Of a DNA stretch of 64,000 nt, positions 25,936 to 34,457 are shown in pieces (within the stretch, counting starts at the first letter, position 1; every line of letters begins with the position of its first letter). Made by a program: the position numbers and the translations under genes. The DNA is taken from assembly GCA_963662985.1 (NCBI GenBank), contig OY760067.1:1407287-1471286 (forward strand). Direction: 5' to 3'. Below the pieces are notes generated by a model. The model ran no database searches and had not been told where the DNA came from. It saw only the letters and a list, made by a program, of their open reading frames with translations. The DNA is from Anaerolineales bacterium (GTDB lineage: Bacteria; Chloroflexota; Anaerolineae; Anaerolineales; UBA11579).

Positions 25936-28569
25936 TTATTGGATTGGTTTCCCATAATAAGCATCCAAGTAAAGTTGTTTGATTTCAGCAATCAATGGAT
26001 AGCGAGGATTCGCGCCCGTGCATTGGTCATCAAAGGCATTTTCAGATAGCTCATCCAAAACTTCCAAGAAATCTTTTTCTTTGATTCCATAGGCTTGAAT
26101 GCTCTTTGGAATGTTCAATTCTTCTTTCAAAGTTTCGATTGCATCAATCAACGCTTTCACTTTATCTTCTTTGGTCTTGCCACCTAATTCCAGATAATTT
26201 GCAATCTTGGCATAGCGGCTGGCAGAAGAGGGGTGGTCGTATTGCGGGAATGCAGTCAACTTCGTCGGTGCATCATCAGCGTTATAACGGATCACATAAC
26301 TGATGAGCAAAGCATTTGCTACGCCATGTGGCACATTAAAAGCTGCCCCAAGTTTGTGTGCCATTGAGTGGCAGATGCCCAAGAATGCGTTGGCAAATGC
26401 CATCCCTGCCAAAGTAGACGCATTGTGAACACGTTCTCGTGCATAAGGATTGTCGGCACCTTCTTTATAAGCCGCAGGCAAATACTTGAACATTACCCGC
26501 AAACTTTCCAAAGCCAACCCATTTGTATAATCCGTGGCTAATACAGACACAAATGCTTCAATTGCATGCACAATTCCGTCAATCCCAGAAGCAGCGGTCA
26601 AACCTTTAGGCATATTCAAAACTAATTCGCTATCGATAATTGCCATATCAGGCGTAATTGCATAATCTGCCAATGGATATTTCACATGTGTTTTTGCATC
26701 GGTCACCACAGAGAACGGAGTCACTTCAGAGCCAGTCCCAGAGGTGGTCGGGATAGCTACGAAGTAAGCCTTGCGTCCCAATTCGGGGAATTCATAAATG
26801 CGTTTGCGAATATCCATGAAGCGCATTGCCATTCCGTCGAAGTCCATATTTGGATTTTCATAGAGCAACCACATCACTTTTGCGGCATCCATCGGAGAGC
26901 CACCGCCTAAAGCAATAATCACATCCGGGTTGAAGTCACGCATTCGTGCCACACCTTCTTCCACCACTTCAAAAGTGGGGTCAGGGATCACATTGTGGAA
27001 AATCTCTACTTCAATTTCCATCGGTTCCAAGATGGAAGTGATTCGATCTGTATATCCCAAGTCAAACAAGGGTTTATCGGTTACTAAGAAGGCGCGCTTC
27101 TTCCCTTTAAGTTCTTGTAATGCCACTGGCAAAGAACCATACTTATGATAGATTCGAGAAGGCACACGGAACCATTGCATGTTCTCGCGTCGTTCCGCAA
27201 TTCGTTTGATGTTCAAAAGATGTTTCACGCCCACATTTTCACTCACAGCATTCCCTCCCCAGGAACCACAACCCAAAGTTAAAGAGGGTTCCAACATAAA
27301 GTTATATAGATCACCGATTGCCCCTTGGGAAGCAGGCATATTCACCAACACACGTCCAGCATTCATCCGTTCCCCAAATTCCTTGATTCGTTCAGTATTC
27401 ATCGGATCAGTAAACAACAATGACGTATGTCCAATACCGCCTTCGTTAACGATTTGAGCGGTGTAATTTAAGCCTTGTTCGTAGCTAGAAAAGCGCAGCA
27501 TTCCCAACACCGGAGAAAGTTTTTCGTGAATGAAAGGATCTTTTCGATCAGGAGAGTCACATTCACCAATTAAAATCTTCGTATTTTCGGGCACAGTCAC
27601 ATCGCCCATTGCAGCAATCTTGGCAGCGCTTTGCCCCACGATCGCAGCGTTCAATGATTGATCTCGCAAGATCACTTCATCAATGCGCTTCTTTTCTGCT
27701 TTGGTCAAAATATGCGCCCCAGCATCAGACAGCATTTGTTTCACTTTGTCATATACCGAATCTTGCACCACAATCACTTGTTCAGAGGCACACACCACTC
27801 CATTATCAAATGTCTTGGACATAATCACAGCATTGATTGCCATGCGCAAATCTGCGGTCTCATCAATCAAAGCAGGGGTGTTCCCTGGCCCCACACCAAT
27901 TGCAGGTGTCCCAGAAGAATATGCAGCTTTCACCATCCCCGGACCACCGGTGGCCAAGATCAAAGAAATATCCTTGTGTTGCATCAAGCGATTCGAAAGA
28001 TCTAAGCTTGGTTCTTCAATGCACGCAATGATGTTTTTTGGAGCCCCAGCTTCCACAGCTGCATCCAAAATAATCTTCGCTGCTTCAGCAGTGCTTTTCT
28101 TTGCATTGGGGTGTGGAGAAAAAATAATCCCATTACGAGTCTTCAAACTAATCAAAGATTTGAAAATCGTGGTCGAGGTGGGATTTGTGGTCGGGATAAT
28201 TCCGGCAATCACACCAATCGGTTCGGCAACTTTATAGATTCCATAAGAAGATTCGTGCTCCAAGATGCCCACGGTTTTTTCATCTTTATATTTGTTATAA
28301 ATAAATTCAGAAGAAAAATGGTTCTTGATTACCTTGTCTTCCAAGATCCCCATTTTAGTTTCTTCCACAGCCATCTTGGCCAATCGGATTCGTGCTTCGT
28401 TTGCAGCGAGAGAAGCAGCACGGAAAATTTTGTCCACTTGGGCTTGGGTGTAGGTTGAAAATTCTTTTTGCGCCTTCACAACCTTAGCAACCATTGTTTC
28501 GAATTGATCTTCGACGGAGGCGGTTGCATCAATTTTTGTTTTCTCAGACATTGTTTTTTCTGCCATCAT
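25936..28569 (-). CDS. adhE: Bifunctional acetaldehyde-CoA/alcohol dehydrogenase
   Basis: ATGGPGMV, FDNGVVCASEQ, LTLGCGSWGGN linker, GGGSPMD, PTTSGTGSE, CHSMAH. Confidence 0.98.
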   Translation of the reverse strand: MMAEKTMSEKTKIDATASVEDQFETMVAKVVKAQKEFSTYTQAQVDKIFRAASLAANEARIRLAKMAVEETKMGILEDKVIKNHFSSEFIYNKYKDEKTVGILEHESSYGIYKVAEPIGVIAGIIPTTNPTSTTIFKSLISLKTRNGIIFSPHPNAKKSTAEAAKIILDAAVEAGAPKNIIACIEEPSLDLSNRLMQHKDISLILATGGPGMVKAAYSSGTPAIGVGPGNTPALIDETADLRMAINAVIMSKTFDNGVVCASEQVIVVQDSVYDKVKQMLSDAGAHILTKAEKKRIDEVILRDQSLNAAIVGQSAAKIAAMGDVTVPENTKILIGECDSPDRKDPFIHEKLSPVLGMLRFSSYEQGLNYTAQIVNEGGIGHTSLLFTDPMNTERIKEFGERMNAGRVLVNMPASQGAIGDLYNFMLEPSLTLGCGSWGGNAVSENVGVKHLLNIKRIAERRENMQWFRVPSRIYHKYGSLPVALQELKGKKRAFLVTDKPLFDLGYTDRITSILEPMEIEVEIFHNVIPDPTFEVVEEGVARMRDFNPDVIIALGGGSPMDAAKVMWLLYENPNMDFDGMAMRFMDIRKRIYEFPELGRKAYFVAIPTTSGTGSEVTPFSVVTDAKTHVKYPLADYAITPDMAIIDSELVLNMPKGLTAASGIDGIVHAIEAFVSVLATDYTNGLALESLRVMFKYLPAAYKEGADNPYARERVHNASTLAGMAFANAFLGICHSMAHKLGAAFNVPHGVANALLISYVIRYNADDAPTKLTAFPQYDHPSSASRYAKIANYLELGGKTKEDKVKALIDAIETLKEELNIPKSIQAYGIKEKDFLEVLDELSENAFDDQCTGANPRYPLIAEIKQLYLDAYYGKPIQ

Positions 28570-28594
28570 ACAACTCCTTTATGAATGAATAAGA

Positions 28595-28726
28595 CTGTTA
28601 TTTAATTCACAATCTAAGGATAAAAAAATAAGTTGAATAATTCCTGTTTTTGATTGTGATTATTTTCACAAATAAATATACCAAGAGGTGAGGATAAAAT
28701 CAAGTGATTTGTGATAAATTTCACAA
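28595..28726 (-). promoter_or_regulatory. adhE promoter with three Rex operators
   Basis: Minus-strand TTGATT(28703-28698)-17-TATATT(28680-28675); boxes TTGTGATTATTTTCACAA 28654-28671, TTGTGATAAATTTCACAA 28709-28726 and CTGTTATTTAATTCACAA 28595-28612 match the Rex consensus TTGTGAA-N4-TTCACAA. Confidence 0.88.
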
Positions 28727-28813
28727 ATAAAAGATGAGAGTTTTCTAAACTTCAAAATAGCCTAAAAAAACATCATGGGAGTAAAAAAGATGGGAAAAAT
28801 CTGGAAAATAGAG

Positions 28814-28975
28814 AAAAAAAAGAAATAAGGAGTTTTGTTCCGCCTTAGCTTGCACCAAAGCGGAACAAAAAAGGAAAACTTGAGTGTACGCACTTTCATG
28901 AATTATGAAGGATTCCTATTGACCAGATAGGGTGTTAGATTTGTGAAAGTGTCTTTTCCTCGTTACTTATTTCAC
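28814..28975 (-). ncRNA. Candidate Rex-repressed small RNA (or long adhE leader)
   Basis: Separate promoter TTGACG-17-TATAAA, Rex-like box at the start, strong hairpin 28833-28870 followed by a U-rich tract, no ORF with a good RBS. Confidence 0.4.
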
Positions 28976-29008
28976 AATCTTTATACACTATTTCAATAAA
29001 TACGTCAA
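28960..29008 (-). promoter_or_regulatory. Second sigma70-type promoter with an adjacent Rex box
   Basis: -35 at 29008-29003, -10 at 28985-28980, box TTGTGAAATAAGTAACGA (minus) at 28977-28960. Confidence 0.65.
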
Positions 29009-29076
29009 TACTGAAAAAATAAAAGGATGTTTTTGTCAAATTTATGAATATAATTTGAAATCTAATTGATTCTAAT

Positions 29077-29607
29077 TTATTTTTGTGCTTTTTTTAGATT
29101 ATATTTTTTCAACAATTTATTAACATATTTTCTAGTAAGCTTGATTTGATTATCTTCTATGGTTTTTATTTCTTGATTAACTGTATTTTGATCTAATTTA
29201 TAAAGCATTAAATATTCTTTCAGGCAATTTAATTGAACATCAAAATCCGAATCTTTTTTGATAGATATAAGAAAAATTTTATCTGGATAATCTAAATGTG
29301 ATGAAAGAACAAAAGAAGCGGATAAACGTAAAAATGGGGATGTATCTTTCAGTAATATATGCTTTACCTTATTAAGAACTCTTTCTACAAGAGGAAAATA
29401 ATGATAACCAATTTGTCGTAAACAATGTTCTCTCCATAATTCATGTTCATCTTCTAAGCCTTTTTCAAAAATATCAAAAGCTTCCATATTATTTTCATGA
29501 GCTAAATCCATGGCAAAAAGATAAACTTCTTTTGGGATTTTTAAATGTTTTTTATTTTTTTTATTATTCCATTGAATTAAAACATCGATTTTTTTACTAC
29601 TTTCCAT
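29077..29607 (-). CDS. AT-rich hypothetical protein, HEAT-repeat-like
   Basis: LEDEHELWR, LKDTSPFLR.SA and KKDSDFDVQ repeats resemble HEAT turns. Confidence 0.65.
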   Translation of the reverse strand: MESSKKIDVLIQWNNKKNKKHLKIPKEVYLFAMDLAHENNMEAFDIFEKGLEDEHELWREHCLRQIGYHYFPLVERVLNKVKHILLKDTSPFLRLSASFVLSSHLDYPDKIFLISIKKDSDFDVQLNCLKEYLMLYKLDQNTVNQEIKTIEDNQIKLTRKYVNKLLKKYNLKKAQK

Positions 29608-29663
29608 ATCTATGACACCCTAAGCTTTTTAAGTATATCGAAAATATAAACTTCTAGAGTAAT

Positions 29664-30827
29664 TTAAATGTATTGGATTCTAACATTCTTGTTCAAAGAG
29701 CGTAAATATTCCACCATCTTTTCAACTAAATTGCGCCGTATAGACACACTCAATGGCAAACTCGGGTTTTGATAAAAAGCATTAATCGCTTGTCCCACCA
29801 CAAAAGTGATGTCATCTGCCACCAAAAGCTCCAATGCCAAAAGCATCGCCCCATCCTTATCAATATACAAATAAGAATAATCGCCTTCCACTTGCACCAT
29901 CAACTCATAGGCTTTATTGAGCGTCAAAACCCCTTCCGTAACGAGATCAACACCCTCCAACTCAAAGTAGGGAGGGATGTCATGTTTGATGCTCTCTTTG
30001 TGAATCACAATCTCTTTTTTCAAAAAGCGTGCCACAATATCCCCCGTAGTTCCCCCGCACACAATCTTTCGACCAGAGAAATTCACCAATTGGGCAGCAA
30101 TTCGTTCATCTTCATCTTTATCAATTGGAGGTCCTGTGAACACCATCGCCTCTCGTCTAGGGCGAAAAAACACGCCTGCCATCGAAGCGTCATCTCCCGG
30201 CTCATTTGCATAAAGAGCGTCTGTTTGCGTTAAAACACCGCGCACCACTTTTTCGGCATTCAAGGTTTTTGGAGTGATTAATGTATTCGCCATATAATCA
30301 ATGATCTGCCCACGGCCCCAATTCGGGTTATGACGAGCCCCCAATCCTGCATACCAAACCCCATCACTGATAATCGCCATATAATCATCTACTTGGGCTA
30401 CACCTTTGCAATATTTAATTTTATTGCCTGAGATAGTTTGCTCGGTGCAATGCAGATCACAGCGCTGTTTATTTCGAATAAAGATCGGATCCGGATTATC
30501 AAAATTAAACACTTCAAACATCATTGTCTGATTATCAATACTAATAATTGTGAAAGTAGCATAGGCAATTTTACGTACTTGGCAAGTGGGCAAAGTTTCG
30601 ATCACTGTCTCGATCACATCCTTTAAAGCAATATTTTCTTTCAACATCGTGATGATAATGCTCGTCGTTAGCGTTGCTAAAATATTCGCTTTTACTCCAC
30701 TCCCTAATCCATCAGAAAGTACTACATACGTCTTTTCATCTGTACGCAACACTCGCCATTGATCCCCGCACAGCTCTTCCCCACTTTTATTCAATCCAGC
30801 GCAAAAAACATCCGCAAACAAAGCCAT
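29664..30827 (-). CDS. SpoIIE/PP2C-type serine phosphatase, HfsC-like
   Basis: EELCGD, LSDGLGSGVKANIL, SDG, PGDD motifs; TGPP...CGGTT...LVTEG C-terminal domain seen in hydrogenase-associated phosphatases. Confidence 0.88.
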   Translation of the reverse strand: MALFADVFCAGLNKSGEELCGDQWRVLRTDEKTYVVLSDGLGSGVKANILATLTTSIIITMLKENIALKDVIETVIETLPTCQVRKIAYATFTIISIDNQTMMFEVFNFDNPDPIFIRNKQRCDLHCTEQTISGNKIKYCKGVAQVDDYMAIISDGVWYAGLGARHNPNWGRGQIIDYMANTLITPKTLNAEKVVRGVLTQTDALYANEPGDDASMAGVFFRPRREAMVFTGPPIDKDEDERIAAQLVNFSGRKIVCGGTTGDIVARFLKKEIVIHKESIKHDIPPYFELEGVDLVTEGVLTLNKAYELMVQVEGDYSYLYIDKDGAMLLALELLVADDITFVVGQAINAFYQNPSLPLSVSIRRNLVEKMVEYLRSLNKNVRIQYI

Positions 30828-31327
30828 CAGGAAGCATCCTCATTCAATAATGCCTGCACTTGCAGCAAAGAGGCCTTTGTCTCTGCAGTTGTTTCTCCCA
30901 ACAATCCAGCAATCTCTTGTGCAGTCTTCATTTGTTTATTGATCACTTGCTCCACTTTAGCCAAAGATAATTTTTTCAATTCATTCATTTCTTGGCGTTG
31001 TTGTTCTTCTTGAGAATAATCTACCAAAATGCAAGCGATTAATTTTTCTTGTGGCAAAGGAAAAATCACATTGCGCACAAACAAATTGAGGGCAGGGTAG
31101 TGATTTTCTACCCCTTTGATCACACTTTTAGTCTCCCAAGCATGCAAAAACTGATCGCCAATGCACATGATTTCTCGCACATCTCTACCGATCAAATCAT
31201 CATCTTCTGTTTGAAAAAAGGTACAAAAAGCTGGATTGACCACAACGATTTTCAAATCCAAGTTCACGGCCACTAAACCGTTTGGGTCATAGTCCCATAA
31301 TTTCTGCCATAAAGATGCGCTTTTCAT
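30827..31327 (-). CDS. Stand-alone PAS-domain protein resembling the C-terminus of HfsB/HydS
   Basis: PNGLVAV..VNPAF..F PAS start; VINKQM..AQEIAGLLGETTAETK..L tail; TGATG coupling to the phosphatase. Confidence 0.82.
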   Translation of the reverse strand: MKSASLWQKLWDYDPNGLVAVNLDLKIVVVNPAFCTFFQTEDDDLIGRDVREIMCIGDQFLHAWETKSVIKGVENHYPALNLFVRNVIFPLPQEKLIACILVDYSQEEQQRQEMNELKKLSLAKVEQVINKQMKTAQEIAGLLGETTAETKASLLQVQALLNEDAS

Positions 31328-31368
31328 ATGCTAATACTCCAGTTTTTAATTAAACCAAAATGTTTGAT

Positions 31369-32022
31369 CTACTCAAACTTTTCGTTGATCACTTTCATAG
31401 ATTCAACATAATGTGATAACACCATAATTCCCATACTCAAATCTTCATTGCGCACCATCACATCCTCCGGCACCTTTACCATCGTTGGAGTAAAATTCCA
31501 AATTGCCTTACAGCCGCCTTGTATCAAAAGATCAGCCATTTCTTGCGCAGTTTCCTCTGGTGTCGTAATGATCCCGATTTTCAATTTCATTCGCCGCACT
31601 AAGTTACTGATCTTATCAATTGGCATGATTGGAATATCCCCAATCTTTTCTCCCACTTTGTCTGGGTCATTATCAAAAGCCACCACAATTTGAATCCCGC
31701 TTTTCTCAAATCCTGGATAAAGTGCCAAAGCCTTTCCCAAATTCCCTGCGCCTACAATCACCGCATCCTTAGATTTTAGTAATCCCAAAGTGTCTTCCAA
31801 ACAATTCGCCAAAGATAAAATCGAATACCCGATTCCTGCTTGGCCTTGTTCCGGAAGAAACGCTAGGTCTTTGCGTACGTTTTGTGGAGAAACTTTAGCT
31901 CTTCGTCCAATTTCAGCAGAGGAGATAAATTCTTCGTGATGTTCAAGTGCATTTTTCAAAATGCGATAATAAATAGGTAATCGTTGTAAGCTCGGTTTAG
32001 GAATCGCTTTTGGGGTGGTCAT
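31369..32022 (-). CDS. rex: Redox-sensing transcriptional repressor Rex
   Basis: RLPIYYR, VRKDL, G..G.GY wing, GAGNLG Rossmann fold, IWNF; start re-placed at ATG 32022 after AAGGAG. Confidence 0.95.
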   Translation of the reverse strand: MTTPKAIPKPSLQRLPIYYRILKNALEHHEEFISSAEIGRRAKVSPQNVRKDLAFLPEQGQAGIGYSILSLANCLEDTLGLLKSKDAVIVGAGNLGKALALYPGFEKSGIQIVVAFDNDPDKVGEKIGDIPIMPIDKISNLVRRMKLKIGIITTPEETAQEMADLLIQGGCKAIWNFTPTMVKVPEDVMVRNEDLSMGIMVLSHYVESMKVINEKFE

Positions 32023-32051
32023 CTCCAATATCTCCTTCAAAACGCAATCAT

Positions 32052-32100
32052 TTGTTATCAATTTCACAATGATTGTATAAGTTTCTAAAAGTAATGTCAA
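32052..32100 (-). promoter_or_regulatory. rex promoter with autoregulatory Rex box
   Basis: Minus-strand TTGACA-17-TACAAT followed by TTGTGAAATTGATAACAA (32069-32052). Confidence 0.85.
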
Positions 32101-32111
32101 GTTTGGTGATA

Positions 32112-32142
32112 AAAAAAAGAGTGTTGTAACAACAACACTCTC
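32112..32142 (-). terminator. Intrinsic terminator after the MFS gene
   Basis: Minus strand GAGAGTGTTGTT-GTT-ACAACACTCTTTTTTT hairpin with U tract. Confidence 0.7.
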
Positions 32143-32168
32143 TAATATAATAATTTGAAATAGGACAA

Positions 32169-34457
32169 TCAGACATCAATCCCCGGATGTTTTCGTTCTC
32201 GATCCAACGTATCGATTACTGTCATCGACAAAATAAAGAATTCAGGTCGAGCTAATCCTTGTTTTTCCATATTCTCTAAAATTGCTTCAATCATCCAATG
32301 TAAATAATCTGGGATCTCTAATTGATTGATTTTTTCCAGCAAAGTTGCCCAAATCTGGAGCCCTTTGTTATATTCACCTTTTGCCATATACTTTTCACAA
32401 GAATCCAGCACTTCATCCACATTTAATGTCGACAATAATTTGCGTATAGTTTTCTTGCGATCACCGATTGCCGCGGCCAAAGTCGTTTCCATATCGATTT
32501 TGATTTCTCGCAACATCCGAATATATTCGCGGTCATCTCCCACACTGCGCGCCAAAGCCAACCCCACTTCATTGCGCAAATAGCCATCTTGAATATCGTT
32601 CAGCAACTCGATCGTTTTTGGTACAGCTTCTTTCACCTTCAACTTCCCCAATGCTGAAGCATAAGCAATTCGCATCCCGATATCAGAATCTTTATCCATT
32701 TGTTCCATGAAATAATCTTTAGAACCAATATCATCCACCATCGAAAGGGAACGTGCTGCATGAGCACGTACTGAGCGATAATTAGATCCATACATACTTT
32801 TGCGTAGTGCGTTTTTAGCTTCCTTGCTATCAGCTTTACTTAATGCCCATGCTGCCACCACGCTTAAAGCGGGTTCTCCACGTTCTAACACATTTGCTAA
32901 TGCCTTCGTCAAACGCGGATCCTCTCCATGGTGGGCGATCGAGATGATGGCTTCAAAGCGCACATAAAATCGTGGATCAGCTAATGCGATTAACAACTCA
33001 TCCACAGTTAAAGGACTTTTTGATTGGCCTAGTTGTTCAGTGATATTAATTGCCGTGTTCTCATCATTTGCCCGATGGAAGCGGATTAAGGAGTTGAATG
33101 CCATAAATGGACGCCCATGAATGAACATACTCACAAATTCTCCCACAGAAACACCTTCATCAATTCGCACAAATTGCATCACCAAAAAAGCAAAAATAGG
33201 CAAAGCAAATGAGATTACAAATAAAATAAAATAACTATCAATCGGACGGCCCAACAAAGAACCAGAGACGTTTTGAGTCAGGTCAATCAAACGACCACCC
33301 ATCACCTTACTAATCCCCCATGTGATGCCACCTAATGCGCTCCAAATTGCTAAATAGGACGTTCTGCTTTTCATTGGAATCATATTGACATTGAGTTGAC
33401 GTCCTTGGCCAATCACCCATCCCATAGATGCAATCCCAGCATAAAAAGAAACAAGCAATGCTAAAAGTAAACTGTAGCTAGAATGATGAGGCAAAAAGAA
33501 ATAGAAAATTGGCAATAAGATATAGAGGAATGCCCCAGATTGCAACACCGGTTTACTACCATAACGGTCCGCTGCCCACCCCCAAATATAGCTTGATAAC
33601 ACAGCGCCTAAGGTGGTTGCAGAGGTCATATACACCACTTGCCCTGTCGTTAATCCCACATTATCCAACATATACAAAGAGATAAAAGACTCCATCGGCG
33701 AGGTAGCCAATGTCATCAAAGAAACACCTAAGATGAACATCAAGTAATTTCGATCTTTCAATGGAATGTTCAATCCAGTGAATACTCGTTTATGTTCTGT
33801 CTTTGAAATAATCGGCTTTCCGCCTGGCACAAAGGTCGCCATCACAATCGTAACAACCCCAAAAAAGATTGCCACACCAAAGATCATCATAAAAATCCGC
33901 ATCTCTGTATTTTTATTTAATACATACCCTGCGATCGTTAGCACTAAGAACCCTGTCACGCTATTGATGATATTGTTCATCGCCGTATATTTGCCACGGA
34001 TATTCGCGGGCACATATTCTTGGCTCCATGGGTTCCAACCAGCCAAAGTGAAGGTGCGGAATAAAGCAAAGATTCCCACCATCACAGTGATTGTGATCCA
34101 TAAAATAGCACTCCCAAAATAGTTCAAGACCCAAGGGATCAATAACAATCCAGTCGATAGGGTTACTCGAATTGTGTTCCCCACTAAAAATGCGCGTTTA
34201 GGGCCGATCTTTTCCACCGTAGGCGTGAAGAAAGGAGTGAAGATCCCAGTCACATGTACTAAACCCAGCAATAAACCGATTCTTGTATTAGAAAATCCTA
34301 GTTCAGATAAGAACAAAACAAAGATACTGCTGAAAAAGGTCAGTATTGCATAGTTATTATTTGCAGCTGAGAATGCTAATGCAAAGGGAATCCCTTTACG
34401 TTTTTCAATAGTCGTAATTTCTTCAGATAATAATTCATCGAATGGTTTTTCAGTCAT
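32169..34457 (-). CDS. MFS transporter fused to C-terminal HEAT repeats
   Basis: About 12 TMs with G..ADRYGSK motif A; then LADPRFYVRFEA and VRAHAARSL HEAT units. Confidence 0.85.
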   Translation of the reverse strand: MTEKPFDELLSEEITTIEKRKGIPFALAFSAANNNYAILTFFSSIFVLFLSELGFSNTRIGLLLGLVHVTGIFTPFFTPTVEKIGPKRAFLVGNTIRVTLSTGLLLIPWVLNYFGSAILWITITVMVGIFALFRTFTLAGWNPWSQEYVPANIRGKYTAMNNIINSVTGFLVLTIAGYVLNKNTEMRIFMMIFGVAIFFGVVTIVMATFVPGGKPIISKTEHKRVFTGLNIPLKDRNYLMFILGVSLMTLATSPMESFISLYMLDNVGLTTGQVVYMTSATTLGAVLSSYIWGWAADRYGSKPVLQSGAFLYILLPIFYFFLPHHSSYSLLLALLVSFYAGIASMGWVIGQGRQLNVNMIPMKSRTSYLAIWSALGGITWGISKVMGGRLIDLTQNVSGSLLGRPIDSYFILFVISFALPIFAFLVMQFVRIDEGVSVGEFVSMFIHGRPFMAFNSLIRFHRANDENTAINITEQLGQSKSPLTVDELLIALADPRFYVRFEAIISIAHHGEDPRLTKALANVLERGEPALSVVAAWALSKADSKEAKNALRKSMYGSNYRSVRAHAARSLSMVDDIGSKDYFMEQMDKDSDIGMRIAYASALGKLKVKEAVPKTIELLNDIQDGYLRNEVGLALARSVGDDREYIRMLREIKIDMETTLAAAIGDRKKTIRKLLSTLNVDEVLDSCEKYMAKGEYNKGLQIWATLLEKINQLEIPDYLHWMIEAILENMEKQGLARPEFFILSMTVIDTLDRERKHPGIDV

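Follow-up and report, generated by a model that had tools for sequence, protein, structure and literature searches.

The locus described here raises the question of what the output module of a sensory [FeFe]-hydrogenase does in a bacterium that has no [FeFe]-hydrogenase. It lies in a 64,000-nt stretch of an Anaerolineales genome (Chloroflexota; assembly GCA_963662985.1, contig OY760067.1, positions 1,407,287 to 1,471,286), hereafter the window, on whose minus strand a rex gene is followed, after a gap of 41 nt, by a gene for a stand-alone PAS plus coiled-coil protein and then by the gene for a 387-aa SpoIIE/PP2C phosphatase of the HfsC type (30827-29664), the last two genes being joined by a TGATG overlap at 30829-30825. 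This arrangement had been reported in a preliminary description of the DNA, made from the sequence alone, and was recovered here in full. The PAS protein is homologous to the C-terminal output half of HydS/HfsB proteins, and the pair that it forms with the phosphatase is one member of a widespread family rather than a local oddity.

The open reading frame (ORF) of the PAS gene is intact, and a library scan of the 166-aa protein gives PAS matches only; unlike a fused example (L062), the protein has neither the H-cluster domain PF02906 nor the N-terminal [4Fe-4S] or C-terminal FeS domains. Its structure model comprises a PAS fold followed by a single helix of about 60 residues (residues 105-165; pLDDT 85.7), the fold matches being generic PAS/LOV proteins. 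The protein does not end at QEIAGLLGETTAETK, as had been stated, since 15 further residues lie beyond it. Among similar-length proteins, 1,337 of 1,394 candidates match (lengths 91-291 aa), and the best 120 of these matches, self excluded, measure 163-194 aa, are 44-81% identical and carry names from filamentous cyanobacteria, Anaerolineae, Armatimonadota and others. Longer proteins yield 2,397 matches from 3,101 candidates; PF02906 is found on 112 of the best 120 (manual count of the listing; 34-46% identity overall), bearing out the claimed homology of the tail to HydS/HfsB C-termini, and five of the same 120 are receiver-PAS-tail (REC-PAS-tail) proteins of 297 aa (P0173, P0177, P0185, P0195 and P0221), an arrangement that places the HydS output module under a two-component system. 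In the threonine-rich helix, the motif QM..AQEIAGLLGETTAETK..L is common to the fused forms, to both stand-alone clades described below and to the REC-PAS-tail proteins, and therefore the N-terminal input appears swappable and the tail fixed. The motif is likely to be an HfsC contact or a phosphorylation site.

Other identities of the tail and other linkages were considered. A resemblance to the signalling helix of MCPs was rejected (hhalign probability 1.8%), and no MCP family occurs among the 25 commonest Pfam matches. No PAS-tail/HfsC fusion was present among the long matches listed, three long HfsC "fusions" being apparent chimeras or an HfsC-HfsD join. A 1:1 complex prediction of the phosphatase and the PAS protein with alignments scored 0.01 against a mark of 0.32 and was not used as evidence.

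The phosphatase matches PF07228 with 50 bits (cut-off 25), and its metal-binding aspartates are invariant in 69 of 69 sequences. The catalytic domain superimposes on 3pu9 (Z 25.9, rmsd 2.7, 224 aligned), on SpoIIE (5ucg, Z 25.1) and on RsbX (3w40, Z 19.9). The phosphatase is a full-length homologue, 36-42% identical, of the SpoIIE proteins encoded after fused H-cluster-PAS genes, in agreement with the earlier proposal of an HfsC-type partner. The C-terminal domain belongs to no Pfam family and has no Pfam or PDB sequence match, and its GPP, GG, EG..T, G and N positions are invariant. Its model resembles the Rossmann-like domains of NuoG and Mo-bisPGD enzymes (Z 7.6-10.1), the best match being 7awt_G (Z 10.1, rmsd 3.1, 118 aligned, 9% identity, with the domain not folded alone); an MGS-like domain is not among the 50 fold matches listed for HfsC. 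A nucleotide or phosphate pocket in this domain is possible.

The preliminary description had noted that no H-cluster is encoded in the window, and this extends to the whole source genome (G000, 97% complete): PF02906 had no match there, in a second genome of the same genus (G001) or in four other carrier genomes, the control search being positive in T. maritima and B. thetaiotaomicron. HydG (TIGR03955), the only one of HydE, HydF and HydG searched for, was found in neither G000 nor G001. The one HfsA-like match of G000 is HoxE (43 bits, against 114 for a true HfsA) and G001 has none, while candidate decayed hfsA genes in the window and in locus L011 scored no better than 200 shuffles, in line with the claim that no decayed remnant is evident. 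No HfsD-type catalytic [FeFe]-hydrogenase occurs in G000, whose catalytic hydrogenases are [NiFe] only, namely a hoxEFUYHW operon (C2:127.5-134.0 kb, on the same contig as the locus and 1.3 Mb from it) and a second [NiFe]-type large subunit at C2:395 kb. Two earlier suggestions consequently fail: docking on an [FeFe]-hydrogenase in trans is excluded here because HfsA, H-cluster genes and HydG are all missing from a 97% complete genome, and a decoy role is unsupported because there is no full-length HydS to titrate. The proposed search for group C [FeFe]-hydrogenases and partner kinases thus returned none of the former; for the latter, the anti-sigma-type kinase PF13581 had no match over cut-off in either G000 or G001 (weak matches in long frames only), and the five Hanks kinases of the genome are all unlinked to the locus. 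In G001, the hox operon (L216:4783-7734) shows frame breaks in hoxE and hoxF and a shortened hoxU match, reflecting either an assembly error or decay.

The origin of the stand-alone form was examined in the best 80 of 576 confirmed GTDB loci and the best 80 of 565 confirmed metagenome loci, both ranked by likeness to the window PAS protein and hence overstating the stand-alone share. The former comprise 52 stand-alone loci, 27 fused loci and one cut by a contig end (two calls having been corrected manually, L001 to stand-alone and L072 to contig edge), and the latter include 74 stand-alone loci. A tree of concatenated PAS and phosphatase sequences (68 rows, LG+G4 quick tree, SH-aLRT support only, without bootstrap; the locus cut by a contig end, five near-duplicates and any locus lacking a full phosphatase were omitted) resolves two stand-alone groups. 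Clade I unites cyanobacteria, Chloroflexota, Thermotogota, Fusobacteriota and the window locus, whereas clade II holds loci of Planctomycetota and Spirochaetota adjoining CODH/ACS. That all stand-alone forms share one origin was rejected (approximately unbiased (AU) test, p=0.0018, 45 versus 23 rows, tested after the tree had been seen); the stand-alone form arose at least twice, in what is an old and widespread family. In the class of the window, 20 of 301 genomes gave a match, 18 of these being long frames and two stand-alone forms, of which the window is one. Grouping the window pair with these 18 fused HydS forms was rejected (AU p=0.0002), and because of this the PAS gene is not a recent truncation, in agreement with the earlier reading of the sequence. 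In a sample of the cyanobacterial phylum, the short form was found in 11 of 301 genomes and the long form in two of 301.

Relaxed selection, raised earlier as a sign of a decaying fragment, was not seen. Against G001, dN/dS is 0.11 for the PAS gene (0.047 for the tail, residues 105-166), 0.044 for the phosphatase and 0.088 for Rex, compared with 0.02-0.05 for six flanking genes, and the value of 0.145 for the PAS domain falls within the range of 0.02-0.22 given by the 12 measurable of 14 HfsA-bearing pairs. The rex, PAS and hfsC genes are intact and evolve under purifying selection.

Across the family, HfsC adjoins the PAS gene in 144 of the 147 loci with at least 400 nt of sequence downstream of that gene. 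The third recurrent partner is an HfsA-type gene of about 85 aa, with four conserved cysteines and a weak thioredoxin-like [2Fe-2S] match. Of the 52 GTDB stand-alone loci, 49 have it, a contig end explaining one of the three misses; of the 74 metagenome stand-alone loci, 56 carry it immediately upstream, with contig ends accounting for at least three of the misses. The adjacency of this gene requires at least three to four changes on the clade I tree. In cyanobacteria the genes usually run hoxEFUYH-hfsA-PAS-hfsC, in many cases with hoxW and hypAB next. Among the 66 stand-alone loci of at least 8 kb, 56 contain a rex, a maturation gene or a redox enzyme, the neighbours being NuoF-type (40), HoxH (23), CODH (15), AdhE (7), Rex (5), HfsD-type (5) and HydA (2), and rex adjoins 11 of 26 fused HydS loci. 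Clade II cassettes (L036, L037, L041, L045, L053, L056, L064 and similar) lie among CODH/ACS, ferredoxin-like and NuoEFG-like genes; these loci contain no hydrogenase, and PF02906 is without a match in the genome of L036. Two Clostridia loci (L043:4893-5765 and L069:4893-5765) encode a fusion of Rex with an HfsA-like [2Fe-2S] domain, immediately before the gene of a fused HydS. Two Okeania-like loci have hfsC about 600 nt away from the PAS gene, and hfsC in L026 appears broken (set L022, L023, L026). In L104, L113, L128 and L130, two ATCGAT palindromes exactly 14 nt apart stand 60-140 nt upstream of the PAS gene, between it and a divergent rex (L104, L113, L128) or a nuoE-like gene (L130); a good Rex box of the standard kind is lacking there, and the palindromes form a candidate variant operator.

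Control by Rex was assessed with an operator consensus that we take to be TTGTGAA-N4-TTCACAA. The window holds 14 strand-wise matches to it against 2.87 expected, a number reached in none of 100 shuffles. One box stands at the predicted transcription start of rex, so that the autoregulation claimed earlier remains a prediction in accord with the sequence, and the promoter hexamers before rex are identical in G001; promoter-like sites in the window overall (16 versus 13.1 expected) are not above chance. Translation of rex had been placed at TTG 32100, which is part of the -35 hexamer of the best promoter-like site, and for this reason the ATG at 32022 is the most likely start. The boxes reported before adhE number three (Table 1). 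The phosphatase gene is not just upstream of adhE, as had been thought: a 176-aa ORF and a terminator-like hairpin separate them, and adhE is therefore likely to have its own promoter. In both G000 and G001 a further Rex box precedes hoxE by about 50 nt. Other Rex-like boxes of the source genome were seen before the operon with the second [NiFe]-type large subunit (G000:C2:389485), between a membrane protein and a regulator (C2:1191708), and before what we take to be gap (C2:1769192) and an acyl-CoA dehydrogenase-like gene (C2:1908262).

Table 1. Features of the rex-PAS-hfsC locus and its surroundings, in window positions.
Feature	Position	Strand	Remarks
adhE, bifunctional acetaldehyde-CoA/alcohol dehydrogenase	25936..28569	-	NF010378, 1391 bits (cut-off 951)
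Three Rex boxes before adhE (28709-28726, 28654-28671, 28595-28612)	28595..28726	.	conserved in G001
17-bp hairpin and T-rich run, predicted terminator between cassette and adhE	28833..28870	-	
Rex-box-like site	28960..28977	.	directly after conserved promoter-like sequence
AT-rich 176-aa ORF, lineage-specific insertion	29077..29607	-	24% GC; missing from G001
HfsC C-terminal alpha/beta domain, residues 226-387	29664..30152	-	conserved GPP, GGTT, EG..T and G..IN motifs
PP2C/SpoIIE catalytic domain, residues 1-225	30153..30827	-	aspartates D22, D39, D155, D212/D213 intact
Stand-alone PAS plus coiled-coil protein, 166 aa	30827..31327	-	homologous to HydS/HfsB C-terminal output half
Near-invariant tail motif, residues 132-154	30866..30934	-	kept in fused and stand-alone forms
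rex, second copy of the genome, 217 aa	31369..32022	-	NCBIfam Rex over cut-off
Rex box at predicted transcription start of rex	32052..32069	.	one mismatch to the assumed consensus
Sigma-70-type promoter of rex-PAS-hfsC (predicted)	32072..32100	-	TTGACA, 17 nt, TACAAT; 11 of 12 consensus matches

The AT-rich ORF is skipped by one contig of run X4, which joins across; it offers a weak HEAT-repeat-like lead and is probably outside the rex-PAS-hfsC system. Loose ends of run X3 were set aside as likely ligation artefacts, being positioned on GATC sites. The terminator-like hairpin shows one compensatory pair relative to G001 (two sequences only). It belongs to a segment (28825-29007, minus strand; 83% identity to G001 over the leader, single copy in the genome) in which a promoter-like sequence, the Rex-box-like site, two short hairpins and the 17-bp hairpin are all conserved; it has no Rfam match and may represent either a leader that attenuates adhE or a small RNA, about 150 nt long, under Rex control. 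An Rfam scan of 28400-32300 gave nothing credible. Directly upstream of rex, and kept in G001, is a gene for an MFS transporter fused to HEAT repeats (762 aa; 32169-34457, minus strand).

In a family survey of 47 genomes (22 with a completeness of 90% or more), the PAS gene, adhE and the second rex each occur in two genomes, which are the same two, G000 and G001; a close phosphatase match is likewise confined to this pair among 41 relatives. The window Rex groups with cassette-linked Rex proteins and apart from 13 housekeeping copies (SH-aLRT 93). From this co-occurrence and grouping, rex, the PAS gene, hfsC and adhE look like one unit acquired in a single event. The earlier notion that the locus is wired to NADH and ethanol formation is in keeping with the Rex boxes and with the co-occurrence with adhE.

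The relation of the pair to ethanol and H2 metabolism is best approached through hfsABCD of Thermoanaerobacterium, in which the PAS-tail gene is likewise directly followed by a SpoIIE-type phosphatase gene and which is likewise linked to adhE and the ethanol/H2 balance. HfsA of this operon is described as a small ferredoxin-like protein, HfsB as an [FeFe]-PAS protein, HfsC as a serine phosphatase homologue and HfsD as a hydrogenase (PMC11837493, PMC5707799). In T. saccharolyticum, deletion of hfsA or hfsB leads to more ethanol and more adhE transcript, deletion of hfsC or hfsD directs flux to lactate, and post-transcriptional control is suspected (PMC5707799). In T. thermosaccharolyticum, overexpression of hfsD in a strain lacking hfsABCD gives the ethanologen phenotype of an hfsB deletion (PMC11837493), and HfsC hence looks dispensable once HfsAB is gone. 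The window pair, compared with the T. saccharolyticum hfs system by description, differs in that its PAS protein has no H-cluster or Fe-S domains and its genome has no HfsA or HfsD-type [FeFe] gene.

On this basis, and with a confidence somewhat short of even, the PAS-tail protein and HfsC are proposed to form a metal-free switch, induced through Rex at high NADH, that tunes NADH disposal between Hox and AdhE. High NADH would release Rex and raise expression of the PAS-HfsC pair, adhE and hox together. HfsC would then bind the GETTAET helix of the PAS protein, on which it would most likely act by dephosphorylation or sequestration, and this action would lift a brake placed by HfsB-type proteins on a catalytic redox enzyme, in the source genome HoxEFU or AdhE. 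The lifting by HfsC of a brake imposed by HfsAB is suggested because it fits the order of the Thermoanaerobacterium genetics.

A number of observations weigh against this proposal. The epistasis order on which it draws is weakened by mixing two species, overexpression and a slight polarity of the hfsC deletion on hfsD. An hfsC frameshift is recorded in one evolved ethanologen, beside strains with hfsA or hfsB frameshifts (PMC4898469); this fits the opposite order, or polarity. Because deletion of hfsA resembles that of hfsB in T. saccharolyticum, a pair without HfsA may not brake by the same route. At the locus itself, a predicted terminator stands between the cassette and adhE, and the co-occurrence with adhE in the family amounts to one acquisition event. 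Across the family, 10 of the 66 stand-alone loci have none of the tested redox neighbours, and no dedicated kinase is found among the recurring ones.

Of the other explanations, a possible if doubtful one gives the PAS domain a genuine sensing function, based on a ligand or thiol chemistry of its own, by which it would control HfsC in trans through the coiled coil, in the manner of a split RsbP-type PAS-coiled-coil-PP2C protein. Clade I stand-alone proteins share residues missing from fused forms (W7, W11, Y13, D14, C35, W64 and C99), C99 aligns with the Gly of the GIQND strand of YtvA, a position that we take to face the pocket, and HfsC itself lacks an N-terminal regulatory segment. The tryptophan cap is, however, explicable by dimerisation following loss of the Fe-S domains, and within clade I residue 99 is Gly in four of 12 HfsA-less proteins and Cys in no more than 25 of the 32 with HfsA; the LOV cysteine motif, which we take to be NCRFLQ, is absent, and the generic character of the fold matches likewise speaks for no particular ligand chemistry. 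That the gene is instead a decaying remnant or decoy of a recently truncated hfsB is very improbable and largely refuted. The PAS domain does change more quickly than the phosphatase, with a dN ratio of 3.3 for the window pair, and full-length fused forms exist in 18 of 301 same-class genomes, but the PAS-domain dN/dS lies inside the range of the HfsA-bearing pairs, the tree rejects grouping with those fused forms, the family of short proteins is large and no HydS is present in the genome to be titrated.

The sensing step might also lie outside the PAS domain. It is unlikely, although compatible with several features, that either sensing or a combined kinase/phosphatase activity resides in HfsC, with ATP/ADP or NAD(H) bound by the C-terminal domain and the PAS protein serving as adaptor or substrate. 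No linked kinase was seen, the conserved glycine-rich motifs fall at strand ends in the model, and 49 columns match the nucleotide-binding domains of sugar-acid kinases of the PF17042 (DUF1537/DtnK) type, with a score of 28.5 against at most 18.6 in 60 shuffles. This last match is weak (hhalign probability 29%, pairwise E 6e-4), its target family was picked after the motif had been seen, the second half of the domain is unmatched, and one of 50 members matches at E 0.081. The Rossmann-like fold matches to NuoG and Mo-bisPGD enzymes point the same way as the motifs, but Z scores of 8-10 at about 10% identity say nothing on function, and the domain is without Pfam or PDB sequence matches. Quite unlikely, too, is that the PAS protein reads redox state by docking on a thioredoxin-like [2Fe-2S] domain in trans, with HoxE here replacing HfsA. 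HoxE is the sole HfsA-like match of the source genome, the HfsA-less loci L104 and L113 have a neighbouring HydA with an HfsA-like domain (70-72 bits), and NuoF-type modules are the commonest neighbours; against this, HoxE scores like any NuoE, hox is 1.3 Mb distant, and hoxE has a frame break in the G001 assembly, which may be an assembly error.

Set against other described systems, the window pair fails membership of group C3, the TmHydS-type "phosphatase-linked" sensory [FeFe]-hydrogenases (HydDB, PMC5037454; PMC13104023) whose output half it resembles, for lack of an H-cluster, Fe-S domains and HydG. The PAS-tail does align to proteins with two N-terminal [4Fe-4S] motifs, an H-cluster, FeS and PAS domains (TmHydS itself not being aligned), yet the window protein is not a hydrogenase and cannot bind H2 via an H-cluster. 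A further related system is the hfsA-PAS-hfsC cassette of cyanobacterial hoxEFUYH-hoxW operons, also found beside CODH/ACS, with stand-alone PAS and HfsC proteins of the same clade, from which the window differs by lacking HfsA in both locus and genome and by placing the pair under a second rex beside adhE, outside the hox operon. With the partner-switching phosphatases SpoIIE, RsbX and RsbP, HfsC shares the catalytic fold and metal ligands, whereas it carries an extra C-terminal domain without a family and no N-terminal regulatory domain on the chain, and the genomes lack the PF13581 kinase over cut-off that would mark an Rsb/SpoIIA-type system. In Kiritimatiellia, hydS is reported to lie beside a PP2C gene and an alcohol dehydrogenase gene (bioRxiv 10.64898/2026.10.06.756941). 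No description of the stand-alone PAS-tail form was found in the full-text literature, a scope that leaves outside most subscription papers and supplements, including operon figures and tables. The locus apparently represents an undescribed, conserved minimal variant of a known and mechanistically unsolved system; its novelty is that the pair does without HfsA in a genome devoid of [FeFe] systems and is accompanied by a rex and an adhE of its own.

The significance of such a variant follows from the systems to which it is related. Mutations in hfs are used to raise ethanol yield with the mechanism not known (PMC5707799), and an interaction partner is named as the missing piece of HydS-type signalling in a 2026 paper on a related sensory enzyme (PMC13104023). 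The survival of the pair under selection without H-cluster, HfsA or HydG implies that the output module needs no H2-binding domain and, as no Fe-S or H-cluster cofactor is predicted, the pair lends itself to aerobic work in E. coli on its structure, binding and phosphorylation. A wider generalisation, rather doubtful at present, is that "sensory hydrogenase" signalling centres on the PAS-tail/HfsC pair rather than on the H-cluster, the pair being a self-contained redox switch that acts after translation. HfsC would read a nucleotide via its C-terminal domain and write or erase phosphate on the GETTAET helix, controlling NAD(H)-linked diaphorase modules in the [FeFe], [NiFe] and CODH complexes of several phyla, oxygenic cyanobacteria included; the H-cluster, the HfsA [2Fe-2S] protein, the receiver domain or no metal input at all would then be interchangeable add-ons. 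In filamentous cyanobacteria the same module lies within hox operons, a location suggestive of a level of hydrogenase control that has yet to be studied.

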